Of a DNA stretch of 57,610 nucleotides, positions 26,717 through 57,610 are shown one piece after another (position 1 is the stretch's first letter; each line of letters opens with the position of its first letter). Source of the stretch: Nemertoderma westbladi (Eukaryota; Animalia; Xenacoelomorpha). The DNA lies in NCBI GenBank assembly GCA_032718475.1, contig JAUCBJ010004502.1:1-57610 (forward strand). Reading direction: 5' to 3'. The position numbers and the translations under genes are program-made. Under the pieces are notes generated by a model, which was not told the origin of the DNA, ran no database searches, and worked only from the letters and a program-made list of their open reading frames with translations.

Positions 26717-26800
26717 GGTTCAGTAGCTCAGTCGGTTAAGCGTTGGAAATTTGTCTAGTAGGTATAGAGTTCAAATCCTAGCAGGTGCAAATTGTTTTTT
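26717..26800 (+). promoter_or_regulatory. tRNA-derived Pol III module at the head of element C
   Basis: A box TAGCTCAGTCGG (26724-26735), B box AGTTCAAATCC (26768-26778), T-run at ~26795. Acceptor and anticodon stems do not pair. Confidence 0.65.
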
Positions 26801-31387: not shown

Positions 31388-32569
31388 TGAGGTCTCTATA
31401 GGGGTGAGCGTAACAGGCGGCGGTGGACTCGTGAGGGTCCGGGGGCAAGTTAAATCTCCTCATAAGTGCAAGGGAGATACTGAAGGCCCTCGTGTCTAAC
31501 GAACCATGAATTGCCATGGTGCCGTGGTACCGTCTAGTCGGCCTGTTGCTGTACTGCCAGTCCTGTACACAGTAGGGGTGGTGGCATGGCATGATTTGTG
31601 GTTCATGTGGCGTGAACTATGTTTTGTATGTGGGCGATCAGTGGCAGTTTGCTTGGGGCTTGGATGGTTCCATTGGCTAGCAGCTGTTCCGTTTTTTTGA
31701 TACTATATATTATTGTCTCCATGTTCAGCTGATTGGTCTTTGGTGGCATTGGATTAAACCGTCTGGTCTTTGAGCTTTCTGTTGCTGTGGGTACGTGAGT
31801 ACACGTGATTGTATGTGTGGCCACTGCGAGTGAGTATGGGAACCCTTGCCAGTTGGACCAGACGCTGCTGGTATTAGTAGGACCATACTTTACTGCGCCC
31901 CAGCATACTTTGTGCAGACAAAGTTATTTTACCCTGTCGGTAAAATAAAGTACTCTCGACTCTTTTCCTGTTCTTGTCGATACAATTTTGTCCCCTCCGA
32001 TTTGTCTTTCCCGATTTTGACCCCGATTTTGTCTTACCCGATTATGTCCTCTGTGTGTGCATGGTATGTGTCAGATTTTGTGTTTACCGTAGTGTACTTG
32101 ATTTCGTGAACATCTGTTGAGTACACGTGTACAGGACGGGTAAGTGATTACTTGTTCCTAGCTTTCGAGCTAGTCAATATTGTTTGTGGAACTTACTTCC
32201 CCTCAATATTGCCAGCGAGGCAGGTGAAAACGTGTCAAAATTCCAATGTTGGGTAGCGCAAGCCCACGTGGGACAAGACCGTCGGTTAGGCCCAAGGGCG
32301 ACCTTGGTGCTCGATCACTATCGACTGGTCCACCTGCCGGTTGACTCTTTGTTATACTTTGAGTTGGCTCAATGTACAGTCAGGCCACAGTAAGTTGACA
32401 GTAGCCGCCCATCTGGCTACACGTTCGACGAGCTGTGCTGGTGTGATCGGGGGACCGAAAACAGAACCCGGGAAGCATCAGGCCACCCTACGGCCTGGTC
32501 TGATAATAACATCTGTCAGACTGGCCCCAGGGGTGGTGGAAACACGTCCGCCTTGTGGGTGCACCTCGG
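31388..32569. mobile_element. ~1.18-kb non-coding insertion in gag of C, probable solo LTR
   Basis: Abrupt loss of coding character; TGAGG...CCTCG termini; imperfect flanking repeat AGAGG/GGAGG; TATA-like at ~31704 and AATAAA at ~31944. Confidence 0.5.
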
Positions 32570-32574
32570 GGAGG

Positions 32575-34287: not shown

Positions 34288-35817
34288 TGTTGCCGTTATC
34301 CCTACACCAGGGGGAAAAAACGCCGATGCTGGAGACGTGACTTAACAGACCACCGAGCCCCGGCCAGTCACCGGATATTGATTGTGGGGAGGGAATATTT
34401 TCTGAGATGCAAGTTTGCGGTTGATAAAAAGCTGCATTAGTTGGATATACTCTTTAATGTAACTTCCTATAGTTGAAACCCGTTCAACATCATTGAAACT
34501 TGATTAAGAATAATTTTGGGCTTCCCCAAATCAATATACACCAAATATTCACAATAATTATACGCGATAATATAAATCCCTACAGTATATTATTTAATTA
34601 CCCACTGTTCGCTCAGAATTTTAGCCTACCTAATGTTCCCCAGATTTTCCCTCGGTCCCAGTCTTAGTGCCGTAGTGTCGGTGTCGGTCGACCCTGTCGC
34701 GTGTCCGTTCCACCCCTCACGAACCCCGAAGGGAACGATCATCGAGAACCAGCCCGGCTTGGCTAAGGGTCGGTCCAGTCGGTAGACTCTGTCGCGTATC
34801 CGTACCACCCCTCTCGAACCCCGAAGGGTTCGGTCATCGAGAACCAGTACGGCTTGGCTAGGAGTCTGTCGTGTCGGTGGACCCATTCGCGTGTCCGTTC
34901 CACCCCTCACGAACCCCGAAGGGTTCGATCATCGAGAACCAGAACGGCTTGGCTAGGGGTCCGTCGGTTCATCACAGAAACCCAACCACCTAGGCTTTCC
35001 GAGTCCGTTTCAGGCTCGTAGTCGCTTCGGCAGCCGAGAAACTGCTCCGAACAGTCGAGAACCAGAATCATCGAGAACCAGTATGGCTTGGCTAAGGGGT
35101 CTGTCGTCGGTTCCCGTCGCAAATCCCAGTACAAGCAGTCAGCGTTCCGAGTTCTTTTCAGTCTCGTAGTAGCTGCCGTTGACCAGAGACCGCTAAGGGC
35201 AGTTCTCGTCAAACCCGTCCTGTGGCCAGCCCTTTCGCATGTCCGTCCCACCCCTCGCGAACCCCGAAGGGATCGGTCATCGAGAACCAGTACGGCTTAG
35301 GTCAGGGGGCAGTCGTTAGTTGGCCACCCGTTCGCGTGTCCGCTCCACCCCTCACGAACCCCGGGGTTCGATCATCGAGAACCAGAACGGCTTGGCTACT
35401 AAGGGGCCGTCGGTGCCCGTCGCAAATCCCTGACACAAGCAGTCAGCGGTCCGAGTTCTTTTCAGTCTCGTAGTGGCTGCTGTTGGCCAGGGACCGCTAA
35501 GGGCAGTCCTTGTCCTTTAGGCCTGGCGCATTACCAAATCCACCCCTACAGGCTGCAGGAAGTTGGCCAGGGCCTAATAGTACTCAGGCTAACCTGAATA
35601 CTGCTTGCATTTTCCATCCCCCCCTGGCCCTTATAACTATGAAATTATTCCCGTACCCTGTAAGTTGCCCCAAAGTTCGCCCATAAATCGCCCCCAGTTT
35701 ATTGAATGTGCCCAAAACCCCTGGTCCCGCACCCAGTAGTAATATCGGAATAATCAATTTTAAATAAAATACAAAAATATTCAACTCGCGTTATGGAAAG
35801 TTGAAATACCGCGAACA
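34288..35817 (-). repeat. 3' LTR of element B (1530 bp)
   Basis: Direct repeat of 48611-50213 with about a dozen substitutions and three indels; adjacent to the PPT. Confidence 0.97.
34689..35479 (-). ncRNA. putative structured RNA array (kink-turn/UUCG hairpins) in the 3' LTR
   Basis: Five intact units plus one remnant; stems covary between units (see findings). Expression unproven. Confidence 0.6.
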
Positions 35818-35828
35818 GTCCCCCCCAA
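35818..35828 (-). other. polypurine tract of element B
   Basis: Minus strand reads TTGGGGGGGAC immediately before the TGTTCGCGG LTR start. Confidence 0.75.
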
Positions 35829-39129: not shown

Positions 39130-39560
39130 TGGAAGGGGTGTTACGCGGCAATCTTGGATCTACAGCTGGACTCTTTACACCGCCTACGCCCCAAACTGCG
39201 CACGTAACGGACAATTACGACGCTGGGAGTGAAGTCACGTGGATGCACCAGGGACCCACCAGAATAACACTCCCAACAACATAAAGCTCAGTCGACGAAG
39301 TCATGTGGGATGGGGTTACGCAACATTCTGGGATCTACAGCTGGACTCGTTACACCGCCTACGCCCCAAAATCCATGCAACGGTCCCACCAGAATAACGC
39401 GACTGAGAAACATAAAACCCTCTATCGTCGAAGTCACGTGGATGCACCATGGACCCACCAGAATAACGGGATAGAGGGGGTGTTGCGCGGCAATCCAGGA
39501 TCTACAGCTGGACTCATTACACCGCCTACGCCCCGAACTGCGCACGCAACGGACAACATA
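39130..39560. repeat. ~170-bp degenerate tandem repeat (about 3 copies) between pol and ORF3
   Basis: GGATCTACAGCTGGACTCnTTACACCGCCTACGCCCC at ~39156, 39331 and 39498; GAAGTCACGTGGATGCACCA at ~39231 and 39430. Confidence 0.85.
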
Positions 39561-39830: not shown

Positions 39831-42800
39831 TTAAACGCATTTGTAATTGTCACCAATGTCTGCAGCAGGATCCGTAGTAGGGAACTTATCACCTCTTGTA
39901 GAATCACCACTGTCATTGCCTTCAAGGAGGCACAGCTTCTGGATGGGGCGTTGGTAGTGGCCCGATTTCGTTCGTATCGTCACAGTCCTCGCAAGTCCGT
40001 CTTTGCTTGGGTGTATGGTCACGACCCGCGCCACAGGCCAGTGAACGCGGTCTTTGAGATCTTCTTTAACTAGTACCATGTCGCCAACTGCGACGTTCCG
40101 GTAGGTGTTGTTCCATTTCCTCCTGGTCCGGAGGGTTATGAGGTACTCCTGGGCCCAAATTCTCCACCAATGCGCTGCCAACACTTGGGCCTTTTTCCAG
40201 TTTGTATGTTTCGCGATCTCGTTGGGATCCGGGAACATGGTTTCCGGGAGGAGGTGGGTTTTGGGTCTCCCCAGTAAGTGGTTAGGAGTGAGGGGTTCCA
40301 GGTCTGTGGGGTCGTTGCGGATAGGAACAATGGGTCGGTTGTTCAGGGTAGCCGTGATCTCGCAGAATGTTGTGCGGAGGGTGTCATGGGTTACCCGGGT
40401 ATCGCCTAGAGCGATGCGCATGGATCGTTTCACTAGGTCGATCAGTTTCTCCCATACCCCGCTCGTATGGGGTGCTAAGGGGGTCTGGAAGTGCCACTGT
40501 ATCTGGTGTTCCTTCCAGACTTGGGATGCAGTGTTATCGGTAAACCATCCCTCGATCGCCTCTCTAAGTTCTCTTTCTCCTCCCACAAAGTTTGTACCAT
40601 TATCGGAATACATGTGGCGGCATGTCCCGTTGTTCGCCACGAACCGACGCAGAGCGTTGATGAATGCGTGTTGTGTCAGATTTACCACGATATCTAGGTA
40701 AATTGCCCTAGACCTTAGGCAGGTGAAGATGGCTCCCCAGCATTTGATGTTGGATCGTCGTTCAATAACCGTGAACGGTCCGAAACAGTCCACTCCGGTG
40801 ACGTAGAATGGTGGGGAATCCGCTTGTAGACGGGTGGCTGGTAAGTTGGCCATCTTTTGGGTGATTGGTGGCGCTAGGTAACGTCTGCAGGTGAAGCAAC
40901 GTTTCAACACTTTCCGGATCAGTGGCTGGATGTGGGTGATCCAATATCTTTGTCTTATATTAGCTATAATCCAATTCTGTCCTGCGTGGTGGTTGTCCTC
41001 GTGACATTGTAGAATTAATAGCTTAGCTAGTGTCGACGTTCTGGGCAGAAGCGCCGGGTATTTAACCTCATATTCGACCGGGGCGTTTGCCATCCGGGTA
41101 TTCAGTCGGATCAGTCCGTCCTCTCCCATCATTGGTCTCAGTTGGTAGACTGGGCTGTCCGGTTTCAACGTTTTGCCCGCACTAAGTTGTTCCCATTCAT
41201 CGGGGAAACTTTCTTTCTGGACATATCTAACAATACACTTCTCCGCAATAATGAGTTCTTGTATATTCCGTTGAACTATCGGTTTGTTGTTTTTCCACCG
41301 TAGGAAGTTGCGAAGGGTTATAACGTGATAGACGAGCCGTCTCATGGATGAAGTTCGCTCGATCAACTGATGTAAAGACGCCGCTAGTTGGGTGATCGTC
41401 GCGACGTTATAGTGCCTGCCCGAGTCCTTTGCAGGCTCAGTCAGACAACTATAAATTTCCACCGCGTTGCTTCGATGGACTTTACGGATCTCTTTATCGT
41501 CCTCGTAGTATTTTCCGCTATCGAGCTCGGGGTCGAATCGGGTACTCCATGTTAATTGTGGTTGCTGTAGGAATTCCGGGCCTGTAAGCCAGAGTTTACT
41601 TTTACCGAGTTGTTTTGGGGTGGCGCCTCGGCTTGATAAGTCCACTGGGTTTTCCTTCCCGTTCACGTGATGCCACTGTTCTCGGCCAGTACACTGTTTA
41701 ATCTCCATGGCTCGGTTTGCAACAAACGTGGTGTGACGCCGTGATGGAGAGTGGAGATAATAGAGAACTATACTCGAATCTACCCAGAAGTGTTGAGATT
41801 CTATGGGGATCCGTAGATTCCGCATGACCATGCGATTCTGTCTTACTGCCCAAACTGCAGCTTGTAGCTCGAGTCTCGGAATCGTTGCTACGAATTCCCC
41901 GGATACTGTCTTTGCTTTGGAGAATAAGAAGCTTGTATCGCCGTTTCCATCGTTACTTAGTCTCCGTAAGAAGGTGACTACGCCGATTCCGGTATTCGAA
42001 GCATCCGAAAAGGTGTGGAGCTGGAAGATATCGGTGGGCAATTTATCGAGGAAGAACGGTCTAGGTATCCGCATAAGATGTAGGTGTTCGAGCTGCTCCG
42101 TCCATTTTCTCCATTTGACGCTGAGGTATGGGGGGAGCTCTTCGTCCCATCCCAGTCCTTCTATCCACATTTCCTTAATCAGGTTCATTCCGGCCAAGGT
42201 TACTGGAGATATGAAATTTAGTGGGTCGAAGATGGCGCTTTTTATCGACAAACATCCCCTTTTTGTCATAGGCTTGGGCAGGGGTTTATATTTGAAGATG
42301 AATTCGTCTGATTCTATGTCCCATTCAATCCCAAGTACACGATGTTCCACATCCTCTGAATACATTTTGTTATTTTCCAGCCGGATGTCCTCCGGAAACT
42401 TTTCCATAAGTGTTTTGTCGTGGGATCTGAACTTCACGAGCGGAAACCCTCCTTTCTTTAGACATTCTACCATTCCCATTGCTAGCTGATATGCCTCATC
42501 CACATTGTCCGCGCCGGCGCATCCGTCGTCTACGTAGAAGCATCGTTGAATGGTTTCTATGACGGTTGGAGGGAACTCGTTTTTGCACATAGTTGCCGTC
42601 CTCTTTAGCATGTCGCTGCATGCTACCGGCGAGTCCTTAGCGCCGAAGATCCTGACGACCATACGCATTACGTCTACGTCCTTTATCGTGAATTGGCTAA
42701 TCTCCTGTTGAGTAAGCGTTTTATCCGTCCATAGGATACGTAGACAGTCCGAGTCTCTTGGTAACGTACGAACTTGATGAAACATGGCCTTGATGTCACA

Positions 42801-43187
42801 GGTGAATGCTACCTGGTTTTCCCTGAACCTGATCAATACGCCAATGAGTGTGCTATATATGTTGGGTCCCGTGTAAATTTGACTGTTTAGGGATTCGCCC
42901 TGGTACATAGCGGCAGCATCATTTACCACTCGGATTTTCCCACCTTTGCGGGCTTCTACTACATAGTGGGTTGGGAGATAATATGTTCTTTCACCACCTT
43001 GCAGTTCATTCCGTGGTACCATTTCTGCTAATCCATCATCGAGATATCCTTGGATTACGGTATTATATTTCTCCTTTATCTCGGGTTGGTCATTCAGCCG
43101 GCGTAGAATCCCTTTAAGTCGCCTAAGTGCCATGCTGGCGTTGTTTGCCATTGGTTTGTTTGGATCCTTCCATAACATGAACACCAA
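39831..43187 (-). CDS. pol of element B: RT, Pao-type RNaseH, integrase
   Basis: YYLPTH, DIKAMFHQV, FYVDD; FSDAS, TIPRLEL, WVDS; HEDNHH...CFTC, GVDCFGP, YSDNGTNF, GVWEKL. Separated from gag-PR by a one-base frameshift. Confidence 0.95.
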   Translation of the reverse strand: MVFMLWKDPNKPMANNASMALRRLKGILRRLNDQPEIKEKYNTVIQGYLDDGLAEMVPRNELQGGERTYYLPTHYVVEARKGGKIRVVNDAAAMYQGESLNSQIYTGPNIYSTLIGVLIRFRENQVAFTCDIKAMFHQVRTLPRDSDCLRILWTDKTLTQQEISQFTIKDVDVMRMVVRIFGAKDSPVACSDMLKRTATMCKNEFPPTVIETIQRCFYVDDGCAGADNVDEAYQLAMGMVECLKKGGFPLVKFRSHDKTLMEKFPEDIRLENNKMYSEDVEHRVLGIEWDIESDEFIFKYKPLPKPMTKRGCLSIKSAIFDPLNFISPVTLAGMNLIKEMWIEGLGWDEELPPYLSVKWRKWTEQLEHLHLMRIPRPFFLDKLPTDIFQLHTFSDASNTGIGVVTFLRRLSNDGNGDTSFLFSKAKTVSGEFVATIPRLELQAAVWAVRQNRMVMRNLRIPIESQHFWVDSSIVLYYLHSPSRRHTTFVANRAMEIKQCTGREQWHHVNGKENPVDLSSRGATPKQLGKSKLWLTGPEFLQQPQLTWSTRFDPELDSGKYYEDDKEIRKVHRSNAVEIYSCLTEPAKDSGRHYNVATITQLAASLHQLIERTSSMRRLVYHVITLRNFLRWKNNKPIVQRNIQELIIAEKCIVRYVQKESFPDEWEQLSAGKTLKPDSPVYQLRPMMGEDGLIRLNTRMANAPVEYEVKYPALLPRTSTLAKLLILQCHEDNHHAGQNWIIANIRQRYWITHIQPLIRKVLKRCFTCRRYLAPPITQKMANLPATRLQADSPPFYVTGVDCFGPFTVIERRSNIKCWGAIFTCLRSRAIYLDIVVNLTQHAFINALRRFVANNGTCRHMYSDNGTNFVGGERELREAIEGWFTDNTASQVWKEHQIQWHFQTPLAPHTSGVWEKLIDLVKRSMRIALGDTRVTHDTLRTTFCEITATLNNRPIVPIRNDPTDLEPLTPNHLLGRPKTHLLPETMFPDPNEIAKHTNWKKAQVLAAHWWRIWAQEYLITLRTRRKWNNTYRNVAVGDMVLVKEDLKDRVHWPVARVVTIHPSKDGLARTVTIRTKSGHYQRPIQKLCLLEGNDSGDSTRGDKFPTTDPAADIGDNYKCV

Positions 43188-46100
43188 TGTCCGTCTTTAA
43201 ACGTGGCCTGGTCGAGAACGTCCATACAGTATTGGTCCTCTTTGGATGGGTTTTCATCCTTTTCCGCGAACTCCTGGGTCTCCAAATTAAAATATTTCGT
43301 CATCTCTCGTTGGGTTTTCTCGGTTTCCAGAAACAAATCCTCGTCAAGATCTGAAGCTGAGCAATAACCCACAGAGGTTACATTCTCTTTAATCTGACAT
43401 TTAGGAAGGTAGGTATAGGTGTCCGTAGTTTCCTCCTTAATGCTGCAGAGTGTCCATCCCATTATTGTTCGTTCAGCATAAAATCCATCATCCTGGTTTA
43501 TAGATCGAGCGATATCTCTGGTGGGGATGTGTAGTTCTGGTGTATCAAGTCCAATCAGTAGGGTGATACGGTTCACGTCCAACTGCGGACACCTCAGGTC
43601 TACATCGTCTCGGTCTAATTGTATGAGGGGGGCGTACTCGGCTGATTGTCGGAACCGCACCCGGAGGTCTGTGTGTACCAAGGCGTTCTTGATAGTTAAC
43701 TTAGCCGTTTCGTAGCCCTTCATCACTCCTTCCATCTGGAGTTGTACCTCCCCGGACTCTACATCTCTGTTATCGGTGATGGTTTGTATGGGCCGTTTAC
43801 AAGGTTCATATTCTAGGCCGAGTTGCTCGAGGAAATCCCGGTCGATGATGGTTCCGTCAGACCCGTTATCGAGGAACGCGAGTGTCGTCAAGGATTTGCT
43901 GACTCCTTGGATCCTTACTGGGATTACCTTTGCGAAAACCATGTAGCGGCGATTTATAAGATTAATCGTGGCCGAAATATTGGTTACTTGTGATGTATCG
44001 GTGGAGATCTTAAACGGGTTGGTTTCTCTCCGTTGGGTTGTCCAGGTTCCTTTGAAGATGTGGTTTGTTTCTCCTCTTCGCCTGGCTTCGATCCGAAAGG
44101 GGAGGGTAGTAAAATCGAAGTTCGCGGGGATGTGGAGGAGCGTGTGATGGCGTTGGTCGTTACAGACAGTACAGCATGATCTTTGGTCGCACTCCCGAAC
44201 ATAGTGACCTGTTCCAAGACACTGGAAGCATCCTCGGTGTTTCATTATCGCCTCAAAGCGTGGGACGAGTTCGGCGAACTGAAACTTTCTGCAGAATTCC
44301 ACTTTGTGTTTCTCCCCACAGAAGAGACAGAGCAGGGAATTTGTGATGCCTTCCCTTTTGGGTGCCCAACTCGCGAGATAACATGCCCATTCCTCGGCGG
44401 ATGTCGGTTCCTCGTAGTCTTCGTCGTCGGAATCCTCGGCCATGGTAATGGCCATCGTTCTTACCGGTGGGGGGCGGAATCTCGGTTTCGGAGGGGTTAT
44501 CTTACTCCTGGAGTTGCTCTCTATTCCGTCCAACTTTGCGAGACTTTGTTTTGAAAACATCGAGTCATTCATGGCTTCGGAGATATCGTCCAGGAATGCC
44601 GACATTTCAAGGAAGCTAGGATCTCGATCTGGATGTCTGCGCCGGAGATCTACACATTTATAAGCCCACTTACTTTGTAGCCATCCGGGGAACTTCTTGG
44701 CGATCTGTCGGAGGTTTAGAATGTTGTTCACCTGGTCCTCCTTATTTAAGGGTTTCAAAGTATAGTATGCATCCTTCATAGAGTCGGAGAATTCCTGTAT
44801 GTTCTGTGGGTCCCCTAGTGATCCCGCGTCCTGTATCAGTCTCTCTAGAGTTTTATTAATTATAGTTCCGGTATTTCCGTATCTTTTATCTAGGGTTTTC
44901 CATGCGTCATAGTATGCCTCATGAGAACCTCCTTCAAAACATGCAACAATTCTGCGTGGTTTGTCACCCAGGTATTGCGATAAATATACCAATTTCTGTG
45001 CGTCGGCTATGTCCGTTGATCCGATCTGCGCAAAGAACCGTTTCTTGAATCTGAGGTAATCGACGGGATCTCCTTCGAAGGTGCGAATCTCCATCTTAGG
45101 CATGGCAAGGCGGTTCTCCAATGCCCGGATGATGCTGACGTCGTCTGAACTAGAGTGACTCGGAGGGTTATAGTTATTGGCACTCACTCCCATACTTGAT
45201 GGATCAATAATAGGTGGAGTTTTAATAATGACGCGGCTACGAGTTTGTGGTGTGGATGTAAATGGGTTGTTAGATCGGGGAGTGGCGTCCCGTTCCGAGT
45301 CCCTTTCAGGCTCGTACTTGGGTACACTCGCTGTCGTGGTGTTGGATGGGAAATAAGGTTCCTCATTCTTTAGCGTAGCTGGTGGGGGATGGAACACCGG
45401 GGCTTGTGCCGATAGCGTAGACTGTTTGGTAGGCGGGATCTCGGGTTTCGGAGGTTTCGCCGCTGTTGGTGTAAATGACTTTTCTAACTCCGGTACCGGA
45501 ATTGGTTCATATTCCTGATCTATATCCCTTTCCCAGTCCTCGTAGAGTTGAATATCTCGTTCGATAAGTGCGGCTTCGTATTCTGCGAGTTTTGCAATGT
45601 CCGCATTCTTTTTGTGGATGAGAATTGCTTGGGCCTCGGCGTGTTGTTTACGCATTTCCGCTTCCCATTTACGTTGTTCGATCTCTCGTTCGGCCTCTCG
45701 TCCACGTTGTTCGGCCTCCTGTTTGCGTTGTTCGGCCTGCCGTTCGTCCTCCCGTCTATGTTGTTCGGCCTCCTGTTTGCGTTGTTCGGCCTGTCGTTCG
45801 TCCTCCCGTCTATGTTGTTCGGCCTCTCGTCTATGTTGTTCGGCCTGTCGTTCGGCCTCTCGTCTATGTTGTTCGGCCTCCTGTTCACGTTGTTCGGCCT
45901 GCCGTTCGGCCTCTCGTCTATGTTGTTCGGCCTCCTGTTCACGTTGTTCGGCCTGCCGTTCGGCCGCTTGTTCGGCCTCTCGCTTTTGTGTTTCGGCGGC
46001 TAATACATCTTGCTCAGCTTGCAGTTGAATATACTCATCTTCCATCCGAGCTTTGAGGGCTAATGCCTTCCGTTCTCGCAGTTGGTCTCGGAGTGGCGGC

Positions 46101-46615
46101 GCCCCTTGAGAACTGCGCGCCGAGCCGGATATCTCGCTCCTAGCGCTGGAGTGCTGATTTCTAGCGGACCCCGTTCTCTTTCTATGTACTGCTGTCCTGA
46201 TGCTGAAGGATCGTACTGATTCCGCGTCAGCCCTCTTGTAATACTGTTCCTCATAGCCTCTCACAAGGCTGAGGGTCCTCCGGTGTTGTTTGCGGAACCC
46301 ATCTAGATGTACAACGTGTTCTTCCAACTTGGGGTAGTTTTCCTGATCGGTGGGGGGAACGAGCTCTTGGTACGCCTGTATCATTCTTTCGTACCGCTGT
46401 AGGATATTTCGGATACTTTGAAGCTGAGTTTGTACCTCATTGAGGGGGGTTTTGACTCCCTTGAGTTGTTTCTCCATCCGTTGATACGCTCGGGTTACTC
46501 CGCCTTTAAGCACCCCTAACCGACGGGTCATGTTCTTGACGTTTGGTACCTCGTCGGCTTCCGAGTCTGTGTGGTGATCCATCTCGTCGGTATCGGATAC
46601 GTTATTTGTTGTCAT
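43094..46615 (-). CDS. gag-protease of element B
   Basis: EQ/R-rich coiled-coil repeats, TFEGDPVDYLRF gag core, three Cys/His knuckles, AFLDNGS protease. Confidence 0.95.
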   Translation of the reverse strand: MTTNNVSDTDEMDHHTDSEADEVPNVKNMTRRLGVLKGGVTRAYQRMEKQLKGVKTPLNEVQTQLQSIRNILQRYERMIQAYQELVPPTDQENYPKLEEHVVHLDGFRKQHRRTLSLVRGYEEQYYKRADAESVRSFSIRTAVHRKRTGSARNQHSSARSEISGSARSSQGAPPLRDQLRERKALALKARMEDEYIQLQAEQDVLAAETQKREAEQAAERQAEQREQEAEQHRREAERQAEQREQEAEQHRREAERQAEQHRREAEQHRREDERQAEQRKQEAEQHRREDERQAEQRKQEAEQRGREAEREIEQRKWEAEMRKQHAEAQAILIHKKNADIAKLAEYEAALIERDIQLYEDWERDIDQEYEPIPVPELEKSFTPTAAKPPKPEIPPTKQSTLSAQAPVFHPPPATLKNEEPYFPSNTTTASVPKYEPERDSERDATPRSNNPFTSTPQTRSRVIIKTPPIIDPSSMGVSANNYNPPSHSSSDDVSIIRALENRLAMPKMEIRTFEGDPVDYLRFKKRFFAQIGSTDIADAQKLVYLSQYLGDKPRRIVACFEGGSHEAYYDAWKTLDKRYGNTGTIINKTLERLIQDAGSLGDPQNIQEFSDSMKDAYYTLKPLNKEDQVNNILNLRQIAKKFPGWLQSKWAYKCVDLRRRHPDRDPSFLEMSAFLDDISEAMNDSMFSKQSLAKLDGIESNSRSKITPPKPRFRPPPVRTMAITMAEDSDDEDYEEPTSAEEWACYLASWAPKREGITNSLLCLFCGEKHKVEFCRKFQFAELVPRFEAIMKHRGCFQCLGTGHYVRECDQRSCCTVCNDQRHHTLLHIPANFDFTTLPFRIEARRRGETNHIFKGTWTTQRRETNPFKISTDTSQVTNISATINLINRRYMVFAKVIPVRIQGVSKSLTTLAFLDNGSDGTIIDRDFLEQLGLEYEPCKRPIQTITDNRDVESGEVQLQMEGVMKGYETAKLTIKNALVHTDLRVRFRQSAEYAPLIQLDRDDVDLRCPQLDVNRITLLIGLDTPELHIPTRDIARSINQDDGFYAERTIMGWTLCSIKEETTDTYTYLPKCQIKENVTSVGYCSASDLDEDLFLETEKTQREMTKYFNLETQEFAEKDENPSKEDQYCMDVLDQATFKDGHWCSCYGRIQTNQWQTTPAWHLGDLKGFYAG

Positions 46616-46803
46616 TGTAACGCCTCGTCGATGGCTAGATACGCGATGTCGTAAAACAGTTCCTCGTAGGTATTGTACTCAGCTTGGACCACCCGAATAG
46701 TAATCCTGAATCGTCCAACGTTCGTTCCTTGTACCTCAACTTCGACGTGCCAGATTCCTGGCTCAACTTGAATTATATCAATGGGTGTGATCGATACTTC
46801 CAT
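46612..46803 (-). CDS. small upstream ORF (63 aa) overlapping the gag start by ATGA
   Basis: ATG start, protein-like amphipathic pattern, stop overlaps the gag ATG at 46612-46615. Confidence 0.4.
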   Translation of the reverse strand: MEVSITPIDIIQVEPGIWHVEVEVQGTNVGRFRITIRVVQAEYNTYEELFYDIAYLAIDEALQ

Positions 46804-47009
46804 TCCCTGTTAACAACTCTCCAAATATGTGATCTGCCGACTACGAGTTGGTTAGATCGAGTTTGTTGCTTAATTAAACCACGACTTTGTCTCAACTCAA
46901 ATACCAGAGTTTCCTCGTAGTGGGTGCTGGCAAGCACGTAGAGAGTTTTTGAAGAGTATTGAAGGATTCTCAACTTCCACCAGTTGAAGTTGACCGTAAT
47001 TATCCTTAA

Positions 47010-48561
47010 CCCTATTAAACCCGGGGGGGGTCAATATGACCCCCCCCCGTGGTTTTTTTATTATAATTCTGAAACAAACGCAGTTGGGAATCTGAAATTT
47101 TATGACTTTTCCTAAAAATCTATTGTCTTCCTAGTAGTGAAAACCGTTTTCAAAAATATTGGGTAGTTTTCGAGTTATAGCACCATTTTTTAACCCTACT
47201 TTTGCCACTTTTTTTGAGACGTTTTTTGAAAATTACATTTCATTAAATATGAATTCTAACATCTCTTTTATTGATTTACACCGGTTTTTTGGTGTTAGAA
47301 ATTGGATGGAATTCATATAAATTGATTTAGAAATTTCAAACTTGTTTTTTCGGCGGGTGCCAATTTTTGGTGCCAGCACCAAATTTTAAAATATGTCAAT
47401 TTTGTAAATTGATTGTGTGAAACTTGTTTTTTACGCAATTGGGGTTTTTTGGGGTTCTGGTTTCGATGAAATATATACGAGTTGCACCAAGCGTATCAAA
47501 CTTGTATTTTTCGGTGGTGGGTGCAAATTTTGGTGCTAGCACAAAATTTTGAAAATCCATTCAATTGATAAAATTGTTTGTGACAATTTATTTCTTGCGT
47601 TTTAGAGGTTTATGGCTATTCTGAATTGAATGGAATATATAATTTTCGATCTAGGCATCTCAAACTTGTATTTTTCGGAAGTGGGTGCAAAATGTGGTGC
47701 TAGCACCAAATTTTGAAAACCATCAAATATATAAATTGATTGTGTCACCTTGTTTCTTGCGTTATACGGGTTTGTGAGGGTTCTGAATTCAATGGAATCA
47801 GTAAAAATTTCATGAGAGTTTTCAAACTTGTATTTTTCGCCGGTGGGTGAAAATTGTTGTGCCAGCACCAAATTTTGGAAAATAAGCAAATTGATCAGTA
47901 GATAGTATCATCTTGTTTATTGCGTTATACGGGTTTATGAGGGTCCTGAATCCGATGGAATCAATAAAAACAGCACTGGACATCGCAAACTTGTACTTTT
48001 TGGTGATGGGTACGAAATTTGGTCCTAGCACCAAAATTTGCCAAATTACGTCGAAAAATACAAGTAGCAATGATCTGGCATATTTGAAATGTATTCCATT
48101 AGAATCAGCGCCCTAGAAAACCTGAAAATGTGAATTTATAGCATCGCATAAGTGAATTAAAAATTTTGTGTTCTAACTGAAAAGTGCTGGTAACTTGTTT
48201 TTTTCATTTTTTTCCTACGCAGAGAGGACTAAACAGCCATTTATGGTAATCATATCATTTTTAAATATCTTCCAATGTATTTTGCGCCCCAGAAAACCTG
48301 TATTGAAAAACAATTAGACGAAAAATGTCAGCTTCAAATTTTCTGAAAATTGTGCACTACTTGTAATTTTGGTGCTGCAATATAACCACCCCAGTAAATT
48401 TTTTCGAAAATTTTTTTTTTCGGTCGGATCCTGACTAGTGATACCTACGTACAAACAAAAAATCAGACGTTTTCGTAAAAATTTGTAGATTTTAGAGGGG
48501 GGGGTCAATATGACCCCTCCCCGGTATTTGTACAACATTTTATAGCCCGGTACTAATAGGG
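47010..48561 (+). mobile_element. piggyBac-like MITE, copy 2, inserted in the 5' leader of element B
   Basis: TTAA at 47006-47009 and 48562-48565; CCCTATTA...TAATAGGG termini; inverted copy of 17341-18888. Confidence 0.93.
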
Positions 48562-48610
48562 TTAATTTTGACACCCTGTCAAAATTAACCGCATGAATTA
48601 TTCTTAATTT

Positions 48611-50213
48611 TGTTGCCGTTATCCCTACACCAGGGGGGAAAAACGCCGATGCTGGAGACGTGACTTAACAGACCACCGAGCCCCGGCCAGTCACCGGATA
48701 TTGATTGTGGGGAGGGAATATTTTCTGAGATGCAAGTTTGTGGTTGATAAAAAGCTGCATTAGTTGGATATACTCTTTAATGTAACTTCCTATAGTTGAA
48801 ACCCGTTCAACATCATTGAAACTTGATTAAGAATAATTTTGGGCTTCCCCAAATCAATATACACCAAATATTCACAATAATTATACGCGATAATATAAAT
48901 CCCTACAGTATATTATTTAATTACCCACTGTTCGCTCAGAATTTTAGCCTACCTAATGTTCCCCAGATTTTCCCTCGGTCCCAGTCTTAGTGCCATAGTG
49001 TCGGTGTCGGTCGACCCTGTCGCGTGTCCGTTCCACCCCTCACGAACCCCGAAGGGAACGATCATCGAGAACCAGCCCGGCTTGGCTAAGGGTCGGTCCA
49101 GTCGGTAGACTCTGTCGCGTATCCGTACCACCCCTCTCGAACCCCGAAGGGTTCGGTCATCGAGAACCAGTACGGCTTGGCTAGGAGTCTGTCGTGTCGG
49201 TGGACCCGTTCGCGTGTCCGTTCCACCCCTCACGAACCCCGAAGGGTTCGATCATCGAGAACCAGAACGGCTTGGCTAGGGGTCCGTCGGTTCATCACAG
49301 AAACCCAACCACCTAGGCTTTCCGAGTCCGTTTCAGGCTCGTAGTCGCTTTGGCAGCCGAGAAACTGCTCCGAACAGTCGGTAGGCCAGTAGAGTCTAGT
49401 CGAGTCTAGTCCTTTGTCTTTCGACCCCATCGCGTGTCCGTTCCACCCCTCACGAACCCCGAAGGGAACGATCATCGAGAACCAGTACGGCTTGGCTAAG
49501 GGGTCTGTCGTCGGTTCCTGTCGCAAATCCCAGTACAAGCAGTCAGCGTTCCGAGTTCTTTTCAGTCTCGTAGTAGCTGCCGTTGACCAGAGACCGCTAA
49601 GGGCAGTTCTCGTCAAACCCGTCCTGTGGCCAGCCCTTTTGCATGTCCGTCCCACCCCTCGCGAACCCCGAAGGGATCGGTCATCGAGAACCAGTACGGC
49701 TTAGGTCAGGGGGCAGTCGTTAGTTGGCCACCCGTTCGCGTGTCCGCTCCACCCCTCACGAACCCCGGGGTTCGATCATCGAGAACCAGAACGGCTTGGC
49801 TACTAAGGGGCCGTCGGTGCCCGTCGCAAATCCCTGACACAAGCAGTCAGTTCTTTTCAGTCTCGTAATGGCTGCTGTTGGCCAGGGAGTGCTAAGGGCA
49901 GTCCTTGTCCTTTAGGCCTGGCGCATTACCAAATCCACCCCTACAGGCAGCAGGAAGTTGGCCAGGGCCTAATAGTACTCAGGCTAACCTGAATACTGCT
50001 TGCATTTTCCATCCCCCCCCTGGCCCTTATAACTATGAAATTATTCCCGTACCCTGTAAGTTGCCCCAAAGTTCGCCCATAAATCGCCCCCAGTTTATTG
50101 AATGTGCCCAAAACCCCTGGTCCCGCACCCAGTAGTAATATCGGAATAATCAATTTTAAATAAAATACAAAAATATTCAACTCGCGTTATGGAAAGTTGA
50201 AATACCGCGAACA
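48611..50213 (-). repeat. 5' LTR of element B (1603 bp)
   Basis: Direct repeat of 34288-35817, followed by the TSD GTAAC. Confidence 0.97.
49012..49875 (-). ncRNA. complete six-unit hairpin array in the 5' LTR
   Basis: Unit cores start at 49021, 49116, 49211, 49431, ~49640 and 49737 (plus coordinates). Confidence 0.6.
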
Positions 50214-50218
50214 GTAAC

Positions 50219-52946
50219 CTACTAGGTCCAGTGCCGGATCAATCCTTAGAGGACCATAAGTATTTCAGACACCTTGGTGTACCTGAATGTCCTGTCAATT
50301 ATAGATTAGTAGCAATGCTGATCGGGACAGATCAATTCAATTTACATCAAGTGTGGGAAACCAGACCATCGGTAGTCGTAGCGGGAAACGCATACGCCTG
50401 TAGAACGCCGATAGGGTGGTATACTCGAGCGCCTGTGCGCACACTAGATATAAGTGACGAAGAGGATGATGTACAAAGTACATGTAGTTTATTAACTACA
50501 ATTTCAATTCATTCCTTTTCACATGACAAGGACCATACTACCTTACGTACAAAACACAACAAAGTGACAAGTACGACTTGTGTAGCGAATACAATAAAAG
50601 CAAAGAAAAGGACGACGGCTAAACTCAAGAAAAAACCAAAGGCGAAATGGAAAGATATAACTTCCAAAGTCAAGAAGGGAAGACTTGCTAGCCTTTCTAC
50701 TCCACACATATTGCCAGACGGTCAACCAGACACGTTACTAGACAGTCAACCAGACGTTTTGCCAGACATGTCACTAGATATTTCCGCCGGATGTTCCGCG
50801 AAACATTTTGCCAGACATGTCACAAAATGTTCAACAAGACACTAGTAACATATTGACACAAGCGAAAGCCGCAGTTTCTCTATTGGAGCGGCCTTCTATT
50901 GACAAACAACCAGACGCGTTAATAGACGGTCAACTAGACATTTTGTCAGACACCTCACGAAATGTTCTACCAGACACTAGTAACACATTGACAAATAATA
51001 AAGCCGCAGTTTCTCTATTGGAGCGGCCTTGTATTGACAAACAACCAAACTTGACACTCTTGAGTAATCATAAGCACAGTGAAACCTCATGTATTACAGA
51101 TGTGGGTAGTACCTATATAAATGTAAATACAGGTGTTACTTTGCGCTCAAGAGACATACCAAACTTGCAACCTACGGTGAGACCTGGGATTAATATTGGC
51201 AGAAAAATAATTTTACCGAAACCCAGTGACCCCATAGAGTTCAAACCACCATTAACGATCGACTTACAAAGTACCGACAATCAAGGTAAGAAGACGAAGA
51301 AGGACAAATTACTCGTGGACCCGGACGGATCAACAGTCAACAAGGGAATACCTACCGGCGGACTCGTGGGCCCATCTAGTAAAACAAAACCTTCCAAACT
51401 CACCATTGACTTACCTGATGACGTCATAAATACTTACGTCGACCGCATTGTAAACCTGACAGATTCTTGGACGAGCGCTTGCCAAAAATTAGCGTGGATT
51501 ATACGTTTTGTACAATACGTTAAAGGCAAACGCGACTTTACACGCCGACTTACATTGACTGAGATTGACAGATGTGAAATTAAATTAATTCGCCATTATC
51601 AATTACGATATTTCGCACGCGAATTCACATCTATAAGTCAAGGTCAACCAATCAAGTCGTCACCAATATTGAGTTGGAGTCCGATAATTTATAATGGCTT
51701 AATTTGTCATAAATCTCGGCTTCAAAACATTGACCTTAATACTGATTTTAGGTACCCAATAATAATACCGCAACATCACGAATTACAACGTGCAATGATA
51801 CTGGACGCACATTTACATTTGAAACACGCTGGAAGACACCACTGTCTTTGCTACTTACGTACTAGATTTGTAATAATTAGACCCAGTAAAGCGTTAAGTT
51901 CAGTGACGCGTACGTGTATTATTTGTAAAAAGGTACACTCTAGAATAGGTACCCAAGAAATGAGTGAACTTCCACAAGCACGACTTCAAGCATTCAGACC
52001 ACCTTTTACAGAGACTGGAACTGATTGCTTTGGTCCCATACATACGAAACGTGGACGTATACTAGTAAAACGCTGGGGACTGATTTTCACATGTATGTCC
52101 AGTAGGGCAGTTCATATTGAACACGTGATGGATCTTTCCACCAACGCATTCATACTAGCATTGCGGCGATTTATCGCTAGACGCGGACTAGTAAAATGCT
52201 TGTACTCAGACCAAGGTACAAACTTTGTTGGTGCTCGAAATGAAATTGCTAGAGCCTTTAAGAAATTAGATCATGATCAAATCTCAAACGAACTACGTCC
52301 TTACAAGATTGTTTGGAAGTTTAATCCTCCAGACAGTCCATGGAGAGGCGGAGTCTGGGAGAGACTGATAAGATATATCAAAACGGCCATGGCAAAGGTC
52401 ATTCCAGTAAACCACATCTTGACAGACGACCAATTGACTACATTGTTTGTTGAAATCGAGGCGATACTAAATACTAGACCAATAGTATTAGTACCCGATG
52501 ACAAACAATCCCAATTTGCTTTAACACCAGCACACCTGCTAAAGCAGGCACCGACTACTTTGACGCCTATTTCTATTCCAATAGAAGGCGATAGCTACGG
52601 TAGAAAAGCGTGGAAAATCACGCAACTACTAGCTAACAAATTCTGGGAAATATGGCAAAACCATTAGTTGCCCTCTATTCCTGCCAGAACAACCTGGTAC
52701 AACAATACTCGCGCTTTAAAGCCAGGAGATCACGTGCTGTTAGCGGAAGTGAATCTAAAAAGACGCTTCTGGATAACAGGTGTAATTTTAGCCACACATC
52801 CATCTATGGATGGAGTGACAAGAACCGTGACGGTATGGACAATTGACGGTCGTACAGTAGACAGACCGACTCAACGTCTCGTACTTCTTGAAGAGACTCG
52901 AAACGAGTCTGGAGACTACAAATCTCCAACTAGTGTTAGTAAATAA
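50219..52946 (+). pseudogene. protease C-part, low-complexity linker and integrase of element C
   Basis: MLIGTD...TPIGW protease end; ~300-aa linker with one frameshift (~50810); HLHLKH...CIIC, GTDCFGP, YSDQGTNF, GVWERL; one TAG at 52665. Confidence 0.9.
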
Positions 52947-53317
52947 TTAGGAGTTTACAAATAGATTTCCACGTACCTGTACACTGTAGTAAAGACAGCG
53001 GTAGAATTCCATTGTCTTTATATGTGAACATTGAGGGTAGTACCCTTATGTGTCACATAGGAGCAGGATTTGTAGGTATAAGAAATGGAATTCTACTTGG
53101 AACTCACAATACTGAGACATTTTTGAAATTTTAGACAATCCATTTGGATTTGAAAATTTTTTAAAATATTCTCCTGATGAATTATTTCACTATAAGGTAG
53201 CATTTGTAGTTTAACTTTAACGTAAAAACTTTGAAAATCCGACGTATTTTGATTAAGTTACAGTAATGTAATATGCCTATTTATATTTGTACACATAAAA
53301 CCCTTAGGTACTCTCGT

Positions 53318-53398
53318 GGCGTAGTGGTCAGATGGTTAAGGCGTTGGATACATTACGTAGGTTACGAGTTCGAATCCCAGTCGGGAAATTTGTATTTT
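53318..53398 (+). promoter_or_regulatory. tRNA-derived Pol III module at the head of element D
   Basis: A box TGGTCAGATGG (53325-53335), GGTTAAGGCGTTGGA, B box AGTTCGAATCC (53367-53377); homologous to 26717-26800. Confidence 0.65.
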
Positions 53399-53700: not shown

Positions 53701-56464
53701 ATGTTACATACCTGACATGTCGTTGTTATTCAGGTCGTCATTGTTTATTTTGTAAAATTAGTTAATTCGGTTTCTTGTTGAAACTTTATTTGATAAATCC
53801 TTTTGTAAAACTGTAAATATACTGCAATTTCCTGACATGTTTTCCTTTGGTCCGACTTCGGGACAGCCGAACACCAGGGAGATGGCAGCCTAGATCGTTA
53901 GGCCGTAAGCAACGCAGGGAAGGGATGTCCACAACACGCTAGCGCCCACATTGGATTGACCGCGCACCCCCTTTGCCCCTTCGAAATGCTCAACTTGCTA
54001 TGCAGCGCCCGCTTTGTGAGAAGGTAAGACTTTGTTCGATGCCCTTGCCCGCCGTAAGACCTATAGATCAGGGTAAGCGTGACACCGTACTGGACGCCGC
54101 AAATTTAGGATCAAATAATTATATCCAGACAACCCCCCCCCCCTTTGTCAAGTCCTACGAATCCCTGGGTTAACCTGTACTTCCTACAGGTGCGAACTAT
54201 TGCCATTCGTCAGTACGCGAGTACATATTAGGTACGGACAGCATATGTTCCATAATTTAGTGAGTCGTAGCACTGACTGTTTGGTACCGGTTCGCTTTGT
54301 AGAACGTACATTAGTACCCCCCCCCCCCCCCCCCCTCCTGTCTGGAGTTAGCTATTTGATCAGGCAAGGAGCATTTCTGCTACCGGCACACTGCTTGGCC
54401 TAGGGAGGTTTATTAATATCCTACCGCGCCTTGCCACGTACTGATAGGTATTGCTGCTAACTACCGCAGCAACAAAGTTCTAGAATTAAATTAGTATACC
54501 AGATCAGCTAACGTACGGTAGCAATTAAACCCTATTCTTATCTTACAACCAGAATCTGGTATTAGTGCCGATCACGGGTGTAGTTACTAACACTGTGGTT
54601 GCCCATTGGGTTGTGGATAGGAAGGAGAGAGCTTTGACGTCATTCGTGAGTATAAAGTTCTACAAACGCGACTAGTTTATTTTAGTAGCTAGCGCACGGT
54701 ATCACTTAGTCAGAAAATCACTAAAACCTAGTAAAAGGAATTACACGAAATTGTTTTATTTGTAACACACCCACACACACACGCCCTAAAACATATCGCC
54801 CTTAAAGTTCTACTAGCTATAGCGTACTATACATTACTTTAGGTGGAAATTATCTGTATTTGTACAATTAGGATCTGATTTAGTTGCGGCAAGATAAGGA
54901 GTATTTCATTTTCGTTATTAAACTGTTGTTTGTCTGGACAACGGTATTGTTACATTTAGGCCTGACCTTTTAGACTGATTTCGTACAGGGGGATCAGTTA
55001 TTGTTACATTTAGGCACGACCTTTAGGCTGATTTCGACAGGGATGATCAGCATTGTTACACTAGGTCTGTTAACCACCTAGTTCGTATATAAACCATATA
55101 AATCACACCGTGGCAAGTTACTGTATTTAGGACTGTCAGTGATAGTTAGGATTCGCTGCGCGGGGATTGTTTTCCCGTGAGTTTGGTCTGTTACTGTAAC
55201 TGTACATCTGCCTCACCGGTTAGAGGACAGGTATCCTTCTGTCTAGTACGTAGGCATTCGACCCGCTCACGTACATAGAATAGATACAAGGCTCTGTTCC
55301 TCGCCAGTAGTCGTTTGTGTACTGTATCTGTTTGTTTAGATATCCTGGACTGGGATTTGTTGTCAGATACTGTACAAGCCCGTATACATTACTAGAGTCT
55401 CATAGTAAGATACATCGTTACTAGGATCTGGTAAGCGGTATACTACTGGACCCTTACAGTAGGAAGTATATTATACAAATTCTGAAATTAGTGTATAGTA
55501 CTTCTATCGTAGTGTAAATATTCCTACCTTACAGTAGGAAGTATTTATATAAATTAGTATATAGTATTTCCGCCGTAGCGTATAGTATAGTTTAGAATTG
55601 TTAGCTATTGAAAGTAGGAGATATTTAAATCTAAGGTTAGTAAATTTGGTAATTTAGAACGTCCCCTGCTTCAGTAGGCTTTTAGGGTAGCTAGTACTTT
55701 CGTATTTAATCTTTGACTAGCTAACAGTTAGTTTGTAGCACTTTGTTTTACGCCGTGTGTGTGCGGTGTTACTTTTCGGTACTTGAAAAGGTACATAGGG
55801 TTTAAAGACCAATTTGTATCGGTACCTAGGAAGATTTTTCGTAAGCGTAGAAGTAAAACTCTCACCTTCGACCTTTTCAGGACTCAAGGACTCATTTCTG
55901 GACCGCTTCGAGGATTAGACCGCTTTTCGCAAAGTTTGGGAGACAATAAATTCGTCCGCGCCGCCGAAAAACGGAAAGACCCACGTCCGGTTTGTATTTG
56001 GGAATTTGTACGACTGGAAGATCAAAGGAACGTAAGTTTTACGACTCGTGTCGTTCAAACTTAAGAAAGCACAGTAGTACTCAAAATTTGTGGGTTTCAC
56101 TGTCTATTTAGTAGTGTTGTTGGTACATATTTTCCCTTTAGACGTTGCTGTTTGGCCTATTGTTTGTACTTGTTGATCTACATTTTGTTAACGTATACCG
56201 TTATCTCACTTATTCGTACAAATTTAGCCGGTAGGCTAGATTACTACTTATTTTATTATATACTTTGTTAGTTTATTTGTACATATATCAAGGTAAGTTT
56301 GACATTTGTACATTTCGACATTTTGACATTTCGACATTCTGACTTGTTGATTTATTTGTACCGGTTAGGGTATATATGTATTATATATACCAAGGTAAGT
56401 TTGACACTTCAACATTCAGACACTTTGACATTTTATTACCCGTACTTGACGTATATAATATGAC

Positions 56465-57610
56465 ATGAGTGACACACCCCATTCGACGAGATACCCACCT
56501 ACCGACTATGACTCGTGCGACCCGGACAGATCGACAGTAGACGAACCGAGAAGGAGAACCCGAGATTCCACCGATGTCACACCGCTTGCGTCGCCGGTAC
56601 CCCGAACGGAAATACCGGAAGCCGCAACGCGTGGCGACGGCAGGATCGAAGATTTCCTTACTGTCCCGCAGACTAGATCGCGGGAACCGGACATGGTAAG
56701 TTCGACTGGAAGCCAGGAGAACGTTATTAGAAGTATAGGAGGACACATGGCCCAGATTACTCGGAACCTCGGAGAAGGTTTTCGCGTTTTACGCGAGTTA
56801 ACCGCCCCGATGTCGAGATACGAGTTCTACACCTTACAGGTAAGGATAGAAAGTAGGGTACATGCCTCCGTAGATAAACTTAAAGGTTTGCACGAACTTG
56901 CAGAGTTGCGTGGCGACAACTTTACTCAGGTAAAGATAGTAGATAAATTGGTAAGTGCGAGAGAAAGCCTTATCCAGTTTAAGTCGGTAATAAGCTTGGC
57001 TCAACAGGAGCAGTTCGACCAACTGCTAGGTGAGTCAGTTTCGGACGCGTTGTTACAACCCGAAGAGGAAGAAGAACTCTACTGCCTGGACGGAAGGTTG
57101 GAAACGCTGACCAATTTTCTTCGTAGATGCGGTGTACCGATCGACGAACCGGAAGTCGAACCGCGAGGGACGACGGAAGTTCTCACTACGGAAGGCTCGC
57201 GAGCCTACCAACATCCACCACTGGATAGATCGTTCGTTAGCGTACGGAGCGACGTTGGCAACGTTGGCGACGTTAGTAGAACAGCGTCTGGAATTACTCG
57301 ACAACAACAGGAGGTTGCACGCCGACAACAAGTCGCCGAGGAAGAAGCGCGACACCAGATGGCACAGATCGCCATCGAAGGAGAGAAACAACGTAGAGAA
57401 GACGAGGCAAGAATTGCACAACTCAAGGCGCAAGCTGAATTCGAAGCATCAGAAATGCGCAGATTGGAGGAGGACTTAGTGCGAGAAGCAGCAGCTGACG
57501 AGTTAGCACGGAAAAAGGCAGCATCCGACGCTCGTGCCAAGATGGAGGCACGGCAAATAAATGCTCGATTAGCTATACAGGAAGCGGAATTAGCGGCACA
57601 ACAACAGGAC
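56465..57610 (+). CDS. gag N-terminus of element D, open to the window end (absent from the ORF track)
   Basis: Manual translation MSDTPHSTRYPPTDYDSCD...ELTAPMSRYEFYTLQVR...LLGESVSD has no stop in 382 codons and is colinear with gag of C. Confidence 0.85.
   Translation, partial: MSDTPHSTRYPPTDYDSCDPDRSTVDEPRRRTRDSTDVTPLASPVPRTEIPEAATRGDGRIEDFLTVPQTRSREPDMVSSTGSQENVIRSIGGHMAQITRNLGEGFRVLRELTAPMSRYEFYTLQVRIESRVHASVDKLKGLHELAELRGDNFTQVKIVDKLVSARESLIQFKSVISLAQQEQFDQLLGESVSDALLQPEEEEELYCLDGRLETLTNFLRRCGVPIDEPEVEPRGTTEVLTTEGSRAYQHPPLDRSFVSVRSDVGNVGDVSRTASGITRQQQEVARRQQVAEEEARHQMAQIAIEGEKQRREDEARIAQLKAQAEFEASEMRRLEEDLVREAAADELARKKAASDARAKMEARQINARLAIQEAELAAQQQD

Follow-up and report, generated by a model that had tools for sequence, protein, structure and literature searches.

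Little is known, for the BEL/Pao group, of the means by which LTR retrotransposons export, protect and select unspliced RNA. One such element in Nemertoderma westbladi displays candidate cis signals directly, as short repeated modules with matched changes, and the locus raises the question of what these modules do. The window, by which we mean the whole stretch of DNA analysed here, covers positions 1 to 57,610 of one contig (GenBank assembly GCA_032718475.1, JAUCBJ010004502.1). A first-pass annotation had described six minus-strand hairpin units in it, and all six are present with the letters quoted (U1 to U6, 49012-49812). That annotation did not mention that the array lies in a duplicated LTR, that the second hairpin type shares a common basal scaffold with the first, or that this second type recurs in the genes.

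The window contains nested LTR retrotransposons of the BEL/Pao group, which PMC3601003 describes as confined to animals, and the Pfam domains DUF1759, Peptidase_A17 and DUF5641 were found in several of its ORFs. The array lies in the 5' LTR of one minus-strand element (48611-50213, 1603 bp, TGT...ACA). Its second copy (34681-35408) lies in the 3' LTR (34288-35817, minus strand, 1530 bp, TGT...ACA), where five of the six k-turn-type units are found and the counterpart of U4 is disrupted by a deletion. Only 15 differences separate the two LTRs over 1521 aligned sites, so the insertion is young. It is bounded by a 5-bp target-site duplication (50214-50218, with its twin at 34283-34287), and the polypurine tract, a G-run at 35820-35826 (minus strand), ends 2 nt upstream of the 3' LTR. 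Read on the minus strand, the internal region comprises a gag-protease ORF (43094-46678; DUF1759 and aspartyl protease), a pol ORF in another, overlapping frame (39831-43196; Peptidase_A17, integrase zinc domain and DUF5641), a 1.2-kb spacer and an ORF3 of 866 amino acids (35983-38583). The defining features of BEL/Pao are therefore present, namely a DUF1759 gag, Peptidase_A17, DUF5641, TG..CA LTRs and a short target duplication; among pol proteins the nearest reach at most 38% identity. Three DNA sequencing runs from three studies contain the family in abundance, and contig fragments from sequencing runs differ in the number and order of units. The overlap between gag-pro and pol spans about 100 nt (43094-43196) in different frames, and gag also contains tandem coding repeats that are rich in E, Q, R and A and coiled-coil-like (45600-46020, minus strand).

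Within the 5' LTR the array forms a GC-rich structured block on the minus strand (48981-50000; GC 0.58 against 0.42 and 0.40 in the flanks). Its type-1 units lie at 49012-49095 (U1), 49107-49190 (U2), 49202-49285 (U3), 49423-49505 (U4), 49633-49714 (U5) and 49726-49812 (U6), all on the minus strand, with start-to-start spacings of 95, 95, 220, 209 and 97. This agrees with the annotated repeat of 95 bp interrupted by longer linkers holding a second hairpin type. The long linkers are three type-2 modules on the type-1 basal scaffold, again on the minus strand: C (49290-49375, with a GAAA-type top), B (49515-49605) and A (49818-49900, with 9 nt fewer than its counterpart in the 3' LTR), which bring the block to nine modules. 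The common base runs from a short stem through a small internal loop, whose final A faces GA, and a 2-bp step to a 4x4 loop and a long stem. U1 shows the k-turn pattern with a U·U pair and a UUCG loop; the basal stem of U5 resembles that of type 2; and U6 has an AGUA/GAA internal loop at its base and has lost the UUCG loop, as had been noted, the loop being kept in five of six units. Model R1 gave 11 strong matches in the window, of which the 5' LTR contains six and the 3' LTR five; no type-1 unit was found outside the two LTRs in the 57.6-kb window, where the next R1 match had an E-value of 0.57. A G-quadruplex scan returned scores of at least 1.2 in 58 of 840 windows and found no canonical four-tract motif. 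Two more hairpins, one with a perfect 10-bp stem and one irregular, open the structured block at 49910-50000 (minus strand).

Is the pairing of these modules selected? The claim that the basal stems differ from unit to unit and nevertheless stay paired was borne out: in permutations that take no account of phylogeny, although the units descend from one another and all alignable sequence comes from one element, the natural pairing of the basal arms was the best of 720 for the six units and the best of 24 for U1 to U4, and was equalled by 5 of 362,880 for all nine modules. The outermost basal pair is C-G, A-U or G-C depending on the unit. Among the 27 pairs of the named structure, 5 are doubly changed, 4 of them basal; 3 of 500 shuffles (likewise not phylogeny-aware) reached as high a count and slid controls reached at most 1. 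The middle stem did not live up to the covariation claimed for it, which rests on one pair, doubly changed in U2 alone, and was matched by 72 of 720 permutations, a result that is not significant. The apical stem carries U·U mismatches in three of the six units. For the type-2 basal arms the natural partner ranked only 7 of 9 (B) and 4 of 9 (C). Several mismatches are private to the copy in the window, since other copies carry other letters there. At position 49247, U·U accounts for 60-83% of the summed contig depth in three runs, depth not being equivalent to copy number. The variant table lacks the 49251 change of U2 and U5, and we did not take absence from it as invariance.

Folding of single units gave modest z-scores, from +0.7 to -2.8, and when the LTR was scanned in 25 sliding windows of 120 nt, none went beyond a z-score of -3 on the sense strand, the lowest value (-3.7) being antisense. 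Sense z-scores were below antisense z-scores in five of six units. The sense fold was also the more stable in 13 of 14 modules, a comparison of raw energies, which favour the G-rich strand. In a span-limited fold U1 to U4 each fold on themselves, and in the unconstrained fold U6 pairs with U1.

Matched changes in tandem repeats could also arise at the level of DNA. Tandem duplications in U3 could act as enhancer repeats or palindromes, their paired changes stemming from template switching or hairpin-templated repair. The basal stems of U1 to U4 are pure Watson-Crick palindromes, which is what such repair would be expected to leave; the variation in unit number and order among family copies and the probable position of the array in U3 also fit, and the complement of a UUCG loop forms a stable mini-hairpin in DNA. 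Palindrome-rich cis regions have likewise been described in maize Sirevirus LTRs (PMC4728375). However, four pairs are invariant G·U and a fifth is mostly G·U, and all of these would be A·C on the other strand. Further, the mismatches of the middle and apical stems persist, so repair is not homogenising the hairpins. We consider this DNA-level origin improbable, and the strongest argument against it comes from outside the array, where a structured signal is kept in the genes and the spacer as well as in the LTR.

The type-2 top reads UA, a 4-bp stem, a bulged A, a short stem, a GAAA-type cap and GA. A blastn search with this top identified one copy in the gag ORF (45279-45331, minus strand; E = 8.4e-6), which has its own flanking stem, and one in ORF3 (38347-38411, minus strand; E = 1.4e-10), which has a long stem; elsewhere in the window the search found nothing beyond the LTR, gag and ORF3 copies. 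Pol probably contains a third coding copy (41403-41455, minus strand), where the bulged A is kept beneath a GCAA loop (model R2 E = 0.0058, blastn only E = 0.13, z = -3.0); this copy was not in the R2 training set. The gag copy translates as E-P-E-R-D-S and the ORF3 copy is read in a different phase, so the top is kept as nucleotides. Its presence in two or three ORFs, in different phases and on unrelated stems, is not explained by an enhancer. Among five copies of the type-2 top, each on its own stem, 2 of 9 flanking pairs are doubly changed; 5 of 500 shuffles reached the covariation score of this set and 61 of 500 its double-change count. The ORF3 copy folds strongly (z = -5.4, antisense -5.7) and the gag copy weakly (z = -1.1), both of them equally well or better on the antisense strand. 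The gag copy, the ORF3 copy and the base of U6 share AGUA opposite GAA, which we take to be the sarcin-ricin/loop E motif; the LTR copies have ACUA. If one hairpin is indeed kept in three genes and two reading phases, it would constitute a dispersed signal, of a kind known from RNA viruses.

A third hairpin type occurs in three copies in the spacer between pol and ORF3 (39135-39556, minus strand). Each is a long hairpin with a near-invariant 38-nt top, a GUA/GUA internal loop, a 10-nt loop and compensatory lower stems, and 4 of 25 pairs are doubly changed. These spacer hairpins may drive ORF3 expression. Taken together, the basal covariation, the invariant G·U pairs and the recurrence of the same hairpin top inside ORFs support a selected, multivalent RNA structure on the sense strand of the element, in keeping with the scaffold that the first-pass annotation had proposed from the letters of the DNA.

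What the type-1 tops fold into is less clear-cut. The sequence rule for standard k-turns given in PMC5061560, a 3-nt bulge followed by G·A and A·G, is found in all six units, where the GAU bulge and both GA steps are invariant. The next pair varies as had been annotated (U·U in four units, C·C in U5 and C·A in U2). The invariance of the GA steps carries little weight, given that 56 of the 96 alignment columns are invariant. A strict k-turn descriptor matched 17 times in the 57.6 kb, 11 of the matches being these units. Compared with standard k-turns such as those of box C/D snoRNAs and U4 snRNA, as far as these are described in PMC5061560, PMC4382518 and PMC1874613, the units share the 3-nt bulge, the G·A and A·G pairs, a U at L3, a next pair that is not Watson-Crick and, after it, two Watson-Crick pairs. 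They differ in standing as six tandem copies in a retrotransposon LTR, in having no box C/D sequence, in a C helix that is half U·G (C-G at -1, then U·G, C-G and U·G in all six units, invariant in the window), in having a more stable rival register and in being known from sequence alone. In that register GAG pairs with CUC and leaves a 5-nt bulge; it lies 3.6-6.6 kcal/mol below the k-turn register in six of six units under an energy model without a k-turn or protein term. The kink-turn assignment thus stands as a sequence pattern and not as the predicted lowest-energy fold. RNAalifold, suggested earlier as a check, did yield a consensus structure for the units, but the one it picked is the 5-nt bulge.

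Because the relevant columns never vary, the window alone cannot decide between the two registers. Family variants in contig fragments keep a pyrimidine run able to pair with GGG(G). In a contig from run X6 the pyrimidine run before the bulge ends in UCCU and pairs with GGGG in the k-turn register, whereas the bulge register would carry a C·A mismatch if the 3' arm is like that of U5 (with three unseen differences from U5). A contig from run X3 has a related arm capped as CCU-GAAA-GGG, its helix ending where the C helix of the k-turn ends. Each of these rare variants is a single low-depth contig with the other arm only partly visible, and the two favour the k-turn register. We put the adoption of a k-turn by the type-1 units at about even odds. 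As to a partner, PMC1874613 gives a U at L3 with a U·U neighbour as the preference of Snu13, and a C-G fourth pair as the orientation that SBP2 disfavours; the units have these features, the U·U neighbour in four of the six, and they favour Snu13 over SBP2. A C at position 3b, as in U2 and U5, allows k-turn folding in ions alone according to PMC4382518. Binding of the type-1 units by Snu13 in the cell we consider somewhat less likely than not.

A plainer possibility is that the RNA structure is selected, the type-1 top is an ordinary 5-nt bulge, and the modules bind a protein of the element itself, ORF3 or Gag, much as Rec does with the RcRE, no L7Ae-family protein being involved. The bulge is the minimum-energy fold of every unit and the element encodes in ORF3 a candidate RNA-binding protein, with an exonuclease-like fold and a Cys/His domain. 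On the other side, the closing pair of the bulge register would be G·A in U2, and the C·A mismatch that the X6 variant would give (its other arm only inferred) is absent from the k-turn register. We regard the plain bulge as rather unlikely; it would be a sub-case of the docking platform set out below.

Our search for relatives of ORF3 (minus strand; a DEDDy-exonuclease-like domain and a Cys/His zinc-knuckle-like domain) returned 8 distant relatives with HMMER, with four clusters having contigs of 9-11 kb, and no match in a word search; scans for the family confirmed 0 of 50 viral and 0 of 16 metagenome candidates. The exonuclease-like domain gave a weak structure model (pLDDT 48) with EXD2 as the best Foldseek match (E = 4.5e-4), and the first acidic motif was not found at the position seen in relatives. 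The ORF3s of rotifer LTR elements, reported in PMC5408684 to be DEDDy exonucleases, resemble this ORF3.

This likeness is also part of the case for an anti-silencing or anti-decay device, in which the array would serve as a decoy for host RNA-binding proteins, a roadblock to 3'-5' decay (including that by its own ORF3 exonuclease) or a hairpin source of small RNAs. The array is likely near the 3' end of the RNA, rotifer ORF3s provide an exonuclease parallel (PMC5408684), and PMC4728375 describes Sirevirus LTR palindromes as siRNA hotspots. The stems here, however, are short (2-8 bp) and broken by loops and would make poor Dicer substrates, and copies dispersed in genes are more in line with binding sites than with a roadblock at the 3' end, which leaves this device with only a small share of our confidence.

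Self-cleavage, raised by the first-pass annotation, fared worse. Units of this kind could be ribozymes or decayed hammerhead cores whose GAUGA...GA mimics a k-turn: the order GAUGA, stem, GA coincides in part with domain II of the hammerhead, and in one family variant the corresponding letters are CUGAUGA. In the window's element, by contrast, neither strand of either LTR contains CUGAnGA, the stem is followed by GAGG and not GAAA in 6/6 units, and no third stem or cleavage strand was seen, so that a hammerhead in any permutation, as far as PMC10085705 defines it (CUGAnGA, GAAA, cleavage strand, three stems), was rejected. Rfam gave no ribozyme match even at E-values up to 10, and cleavage inside U3 would presumably remove the poly(A) end. 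We consider a ribozyme very unlikely.

Several other known RNAs were compared with the units. A comparison with Rfam, also suggested earlier, produced 0 family matches at gathering scores in the 57.6-kb window; relaxing the cut-off to E-values up to 10 gave 3 weak matches for the LTR and 1 for the spacer, none of which came close to threshold. Box C/D snoRNAs were rejected as the only RUGAUGA of each LTR lies outside the six units, the D side reads GUGA, GCGA or GAGA, and no Rfam match was found. An HDV-like nested pseudoknot was dropped by eye (no P4 closure, cross-unit pairing no better), as were twister, an H/ACA guide (the stem base lacks both boxes, H and ACA) and the 11-nt tetraloop receptor, to which there is a partial likeness. 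SECIS elements carry apical adenines. With the SECIS, the binding site of SBP2, the units share the AUGA...GA core, a U·U or similar neighbour and a likely place in a 3' UTR, but measured against the description in PMC1874613 they have a 7-bp helix, a UUCG loop, a C-G and not a purine-pyrimidine fourth pair, and no apical adenines; the long ORFs contain no in-frame UGA. Scans with the k-turn-top pattern gave 0 matches in viral contigs and 0 in metagenome contigs, and the type-2 and spacer-hairpin patterns gave 0 in viral contigs; together with the ORF3-family scans, these turned up no homologous locus and no relative from another host.

Where the array falls in the transcript depends on the start of R. 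No tRNA-type TGG start follows the 5' LTR. A 13-nt candidate self-priming site (48596-48608, minus strand) starts 2 nt after the LTR and is exactly complementary to an LTR stretch (48826-48838, minus strand) that we infer to be the start of R. Of 5000 block shuffles, 4 gave a match of at least 13 nt, and the predicted fold includes the duplex. This complement beside the LTR suggests Tf1-like self-priming. A transcript start near 48840 would follow from the match and would place the array in U3, i.e. in the 3' UTR; an ATTAAA is found at 48781. In an alternative layout, with TATAA at 50031 and a strong hairpin at 49997, the array would lie in a long R. The array is probably in U3, and under either layout the LTR life cycle implies that genomic RNA includes it on the motif-bearing strand. 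Run X6, which is only guessed to be RNA and also contains flanking DNA, was excluded as evidence for transcription or transcript ends. A complement to an LTR stretch just after the 5' LTR is common to Tf1/sushi elements (PMC7175516, PMC6317226), where it is 11 nt in Tf1 against 13 nt here; the present element is BEL/Pao and its start is predicted from sequence, whereas the self-primers named in the portions of those sources available to us are Tf1/sushi, Tcn1, TAR, Houba and Osr-1. PMC6317226, whose coverage is plants, names self-primers only in Gypsy and Copia in those portions. If true, the match would extend the Tf1-type mechanism to BEL/Pao.

Given its occurrence in both LTRs, the sense-strand polarity of the loop motifs, the basal double changes and the type-2 tops in genes, we think the array is probably a selected, multivalent RNA docking platform for the export, protection or packaging of the element's RNA. 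The hairpin block would act on that RNA as a multivalent protein-docking (RNP) platform that licenses it for export while unspliced, shields it and routes it to packaging. Every part of the LTR should be present at least once in genomic RNA, and the self-priming match would set the block in U3 and hence in the 3' UTR, 200-1200 nt downstream of the polypurine tract. With a basal stem specific to its unit, each repeat would fold on itself and not cross-pair with its near-identical neighbours. For the type-1 tops we predict that a host protein of the L7Ae family, Snu13/15.5K being the likeliest, would draw them into the k-turn register, a step to which we give somewhat less than even weight. The type-2 tops, with their loop-E-like loop, 4-bp stem, bulged A and GNRA-like cap, would be bound by a protein of the element itself, either ORF3 or the Gag nucleocapsid. 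All of these partners, Snu13 as well as the Gag knuckles or ORF3, are putative. A k-turn array of this kind would, if real, provide a route from transposon RNA into the host snoRNP machinery, for which we found no precedent in the literature searched. The fullest version, in which six k-turns in the 3' UTR hijack Snu13, the hairpin signal in three genes and the LTR provides dispersed packaging or response signals for the element's own Gag or ORF3, and priming is tRNA-free, is speculative; we judge it unlikely as a whole.

A structured cis element in an LTR element is of a known kind, and it is the modular build that is unusual. The RcRE of HERV-K, as described in PMC11379458, is a precedent for a structured export element in U3. 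The array resembles it and the constitutive transport elements in being a long structured RNA that probably lies in U3 or beside the 3' LTR, in an element with an accessory ORF. The array differs from both in its nine tandem modules with k-turn-like and loop-E-like motifs, in having one module also spread through the genes, in belonging to BEL/Pao and not to a retrovirus, and in having export as a candidate role only. GA motifs serve as RNA transport codes in ID SINEs (PMC4033767): the hnRNP A2 transport signal of BC1 RNA shares a tandem G·A in a retroelement-derived stem-loop, but there, in what PMC4033767 describes, it is a single motif in a SINE, whereas the array is multimeric and belongs to an autonomous LTR element. 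Among LTRs the nearest parallel is found in maize Sirevirus elements, whose palindrome region (PMC4728375) is likewise a fast-evolving block of hairpin repeats in a cis region; these are plant Copia elements, and the parts of PMC4728375 available to us speak of palindromes and of siRNA hotspots but of neither non-canonical RNA motifs nor genic copies. Literature searches on k-turns in retrotransposons and LTRs and on LTR export structures, covering mostly non-subscription journals and in part only portions of the texts, described no such array, and neither did searches, equally partial in their sources, on T-loop and sarcin-ricin packaging motifs, BEL/Pao LTR structure and BEL self-priming.

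The surroundings of the element are themselves composite. Its host site is another, broken BEL/Pao element on the opposite strand (29578-34287 and 50214-52900, plus strand), one contig from run X6 joins both flanks of the insertion, and a further related element begins near 55000-57610. A single ORF at 21084-22628 (minus strand) combines a BEL/Pao DUF5641 end with a non-LTR-type reverse transcriptase with DUF6451 and is probably a nested insertion. Two tRNA-like heads, recognised by eye with no ARAGORN call and possibly SINEs, lie at 26713-26790 and 53308-53385 (plus strand). Finally, two 93%-identical, TTAA-flanked non-coding transposons with terminal inverted repeats and internal repeats of about 163 bp were identified at 47006-48566 and 17336-18892, one copy lying about 25 nt after the 5' LTR; we take their ends to be piggyBac-like.
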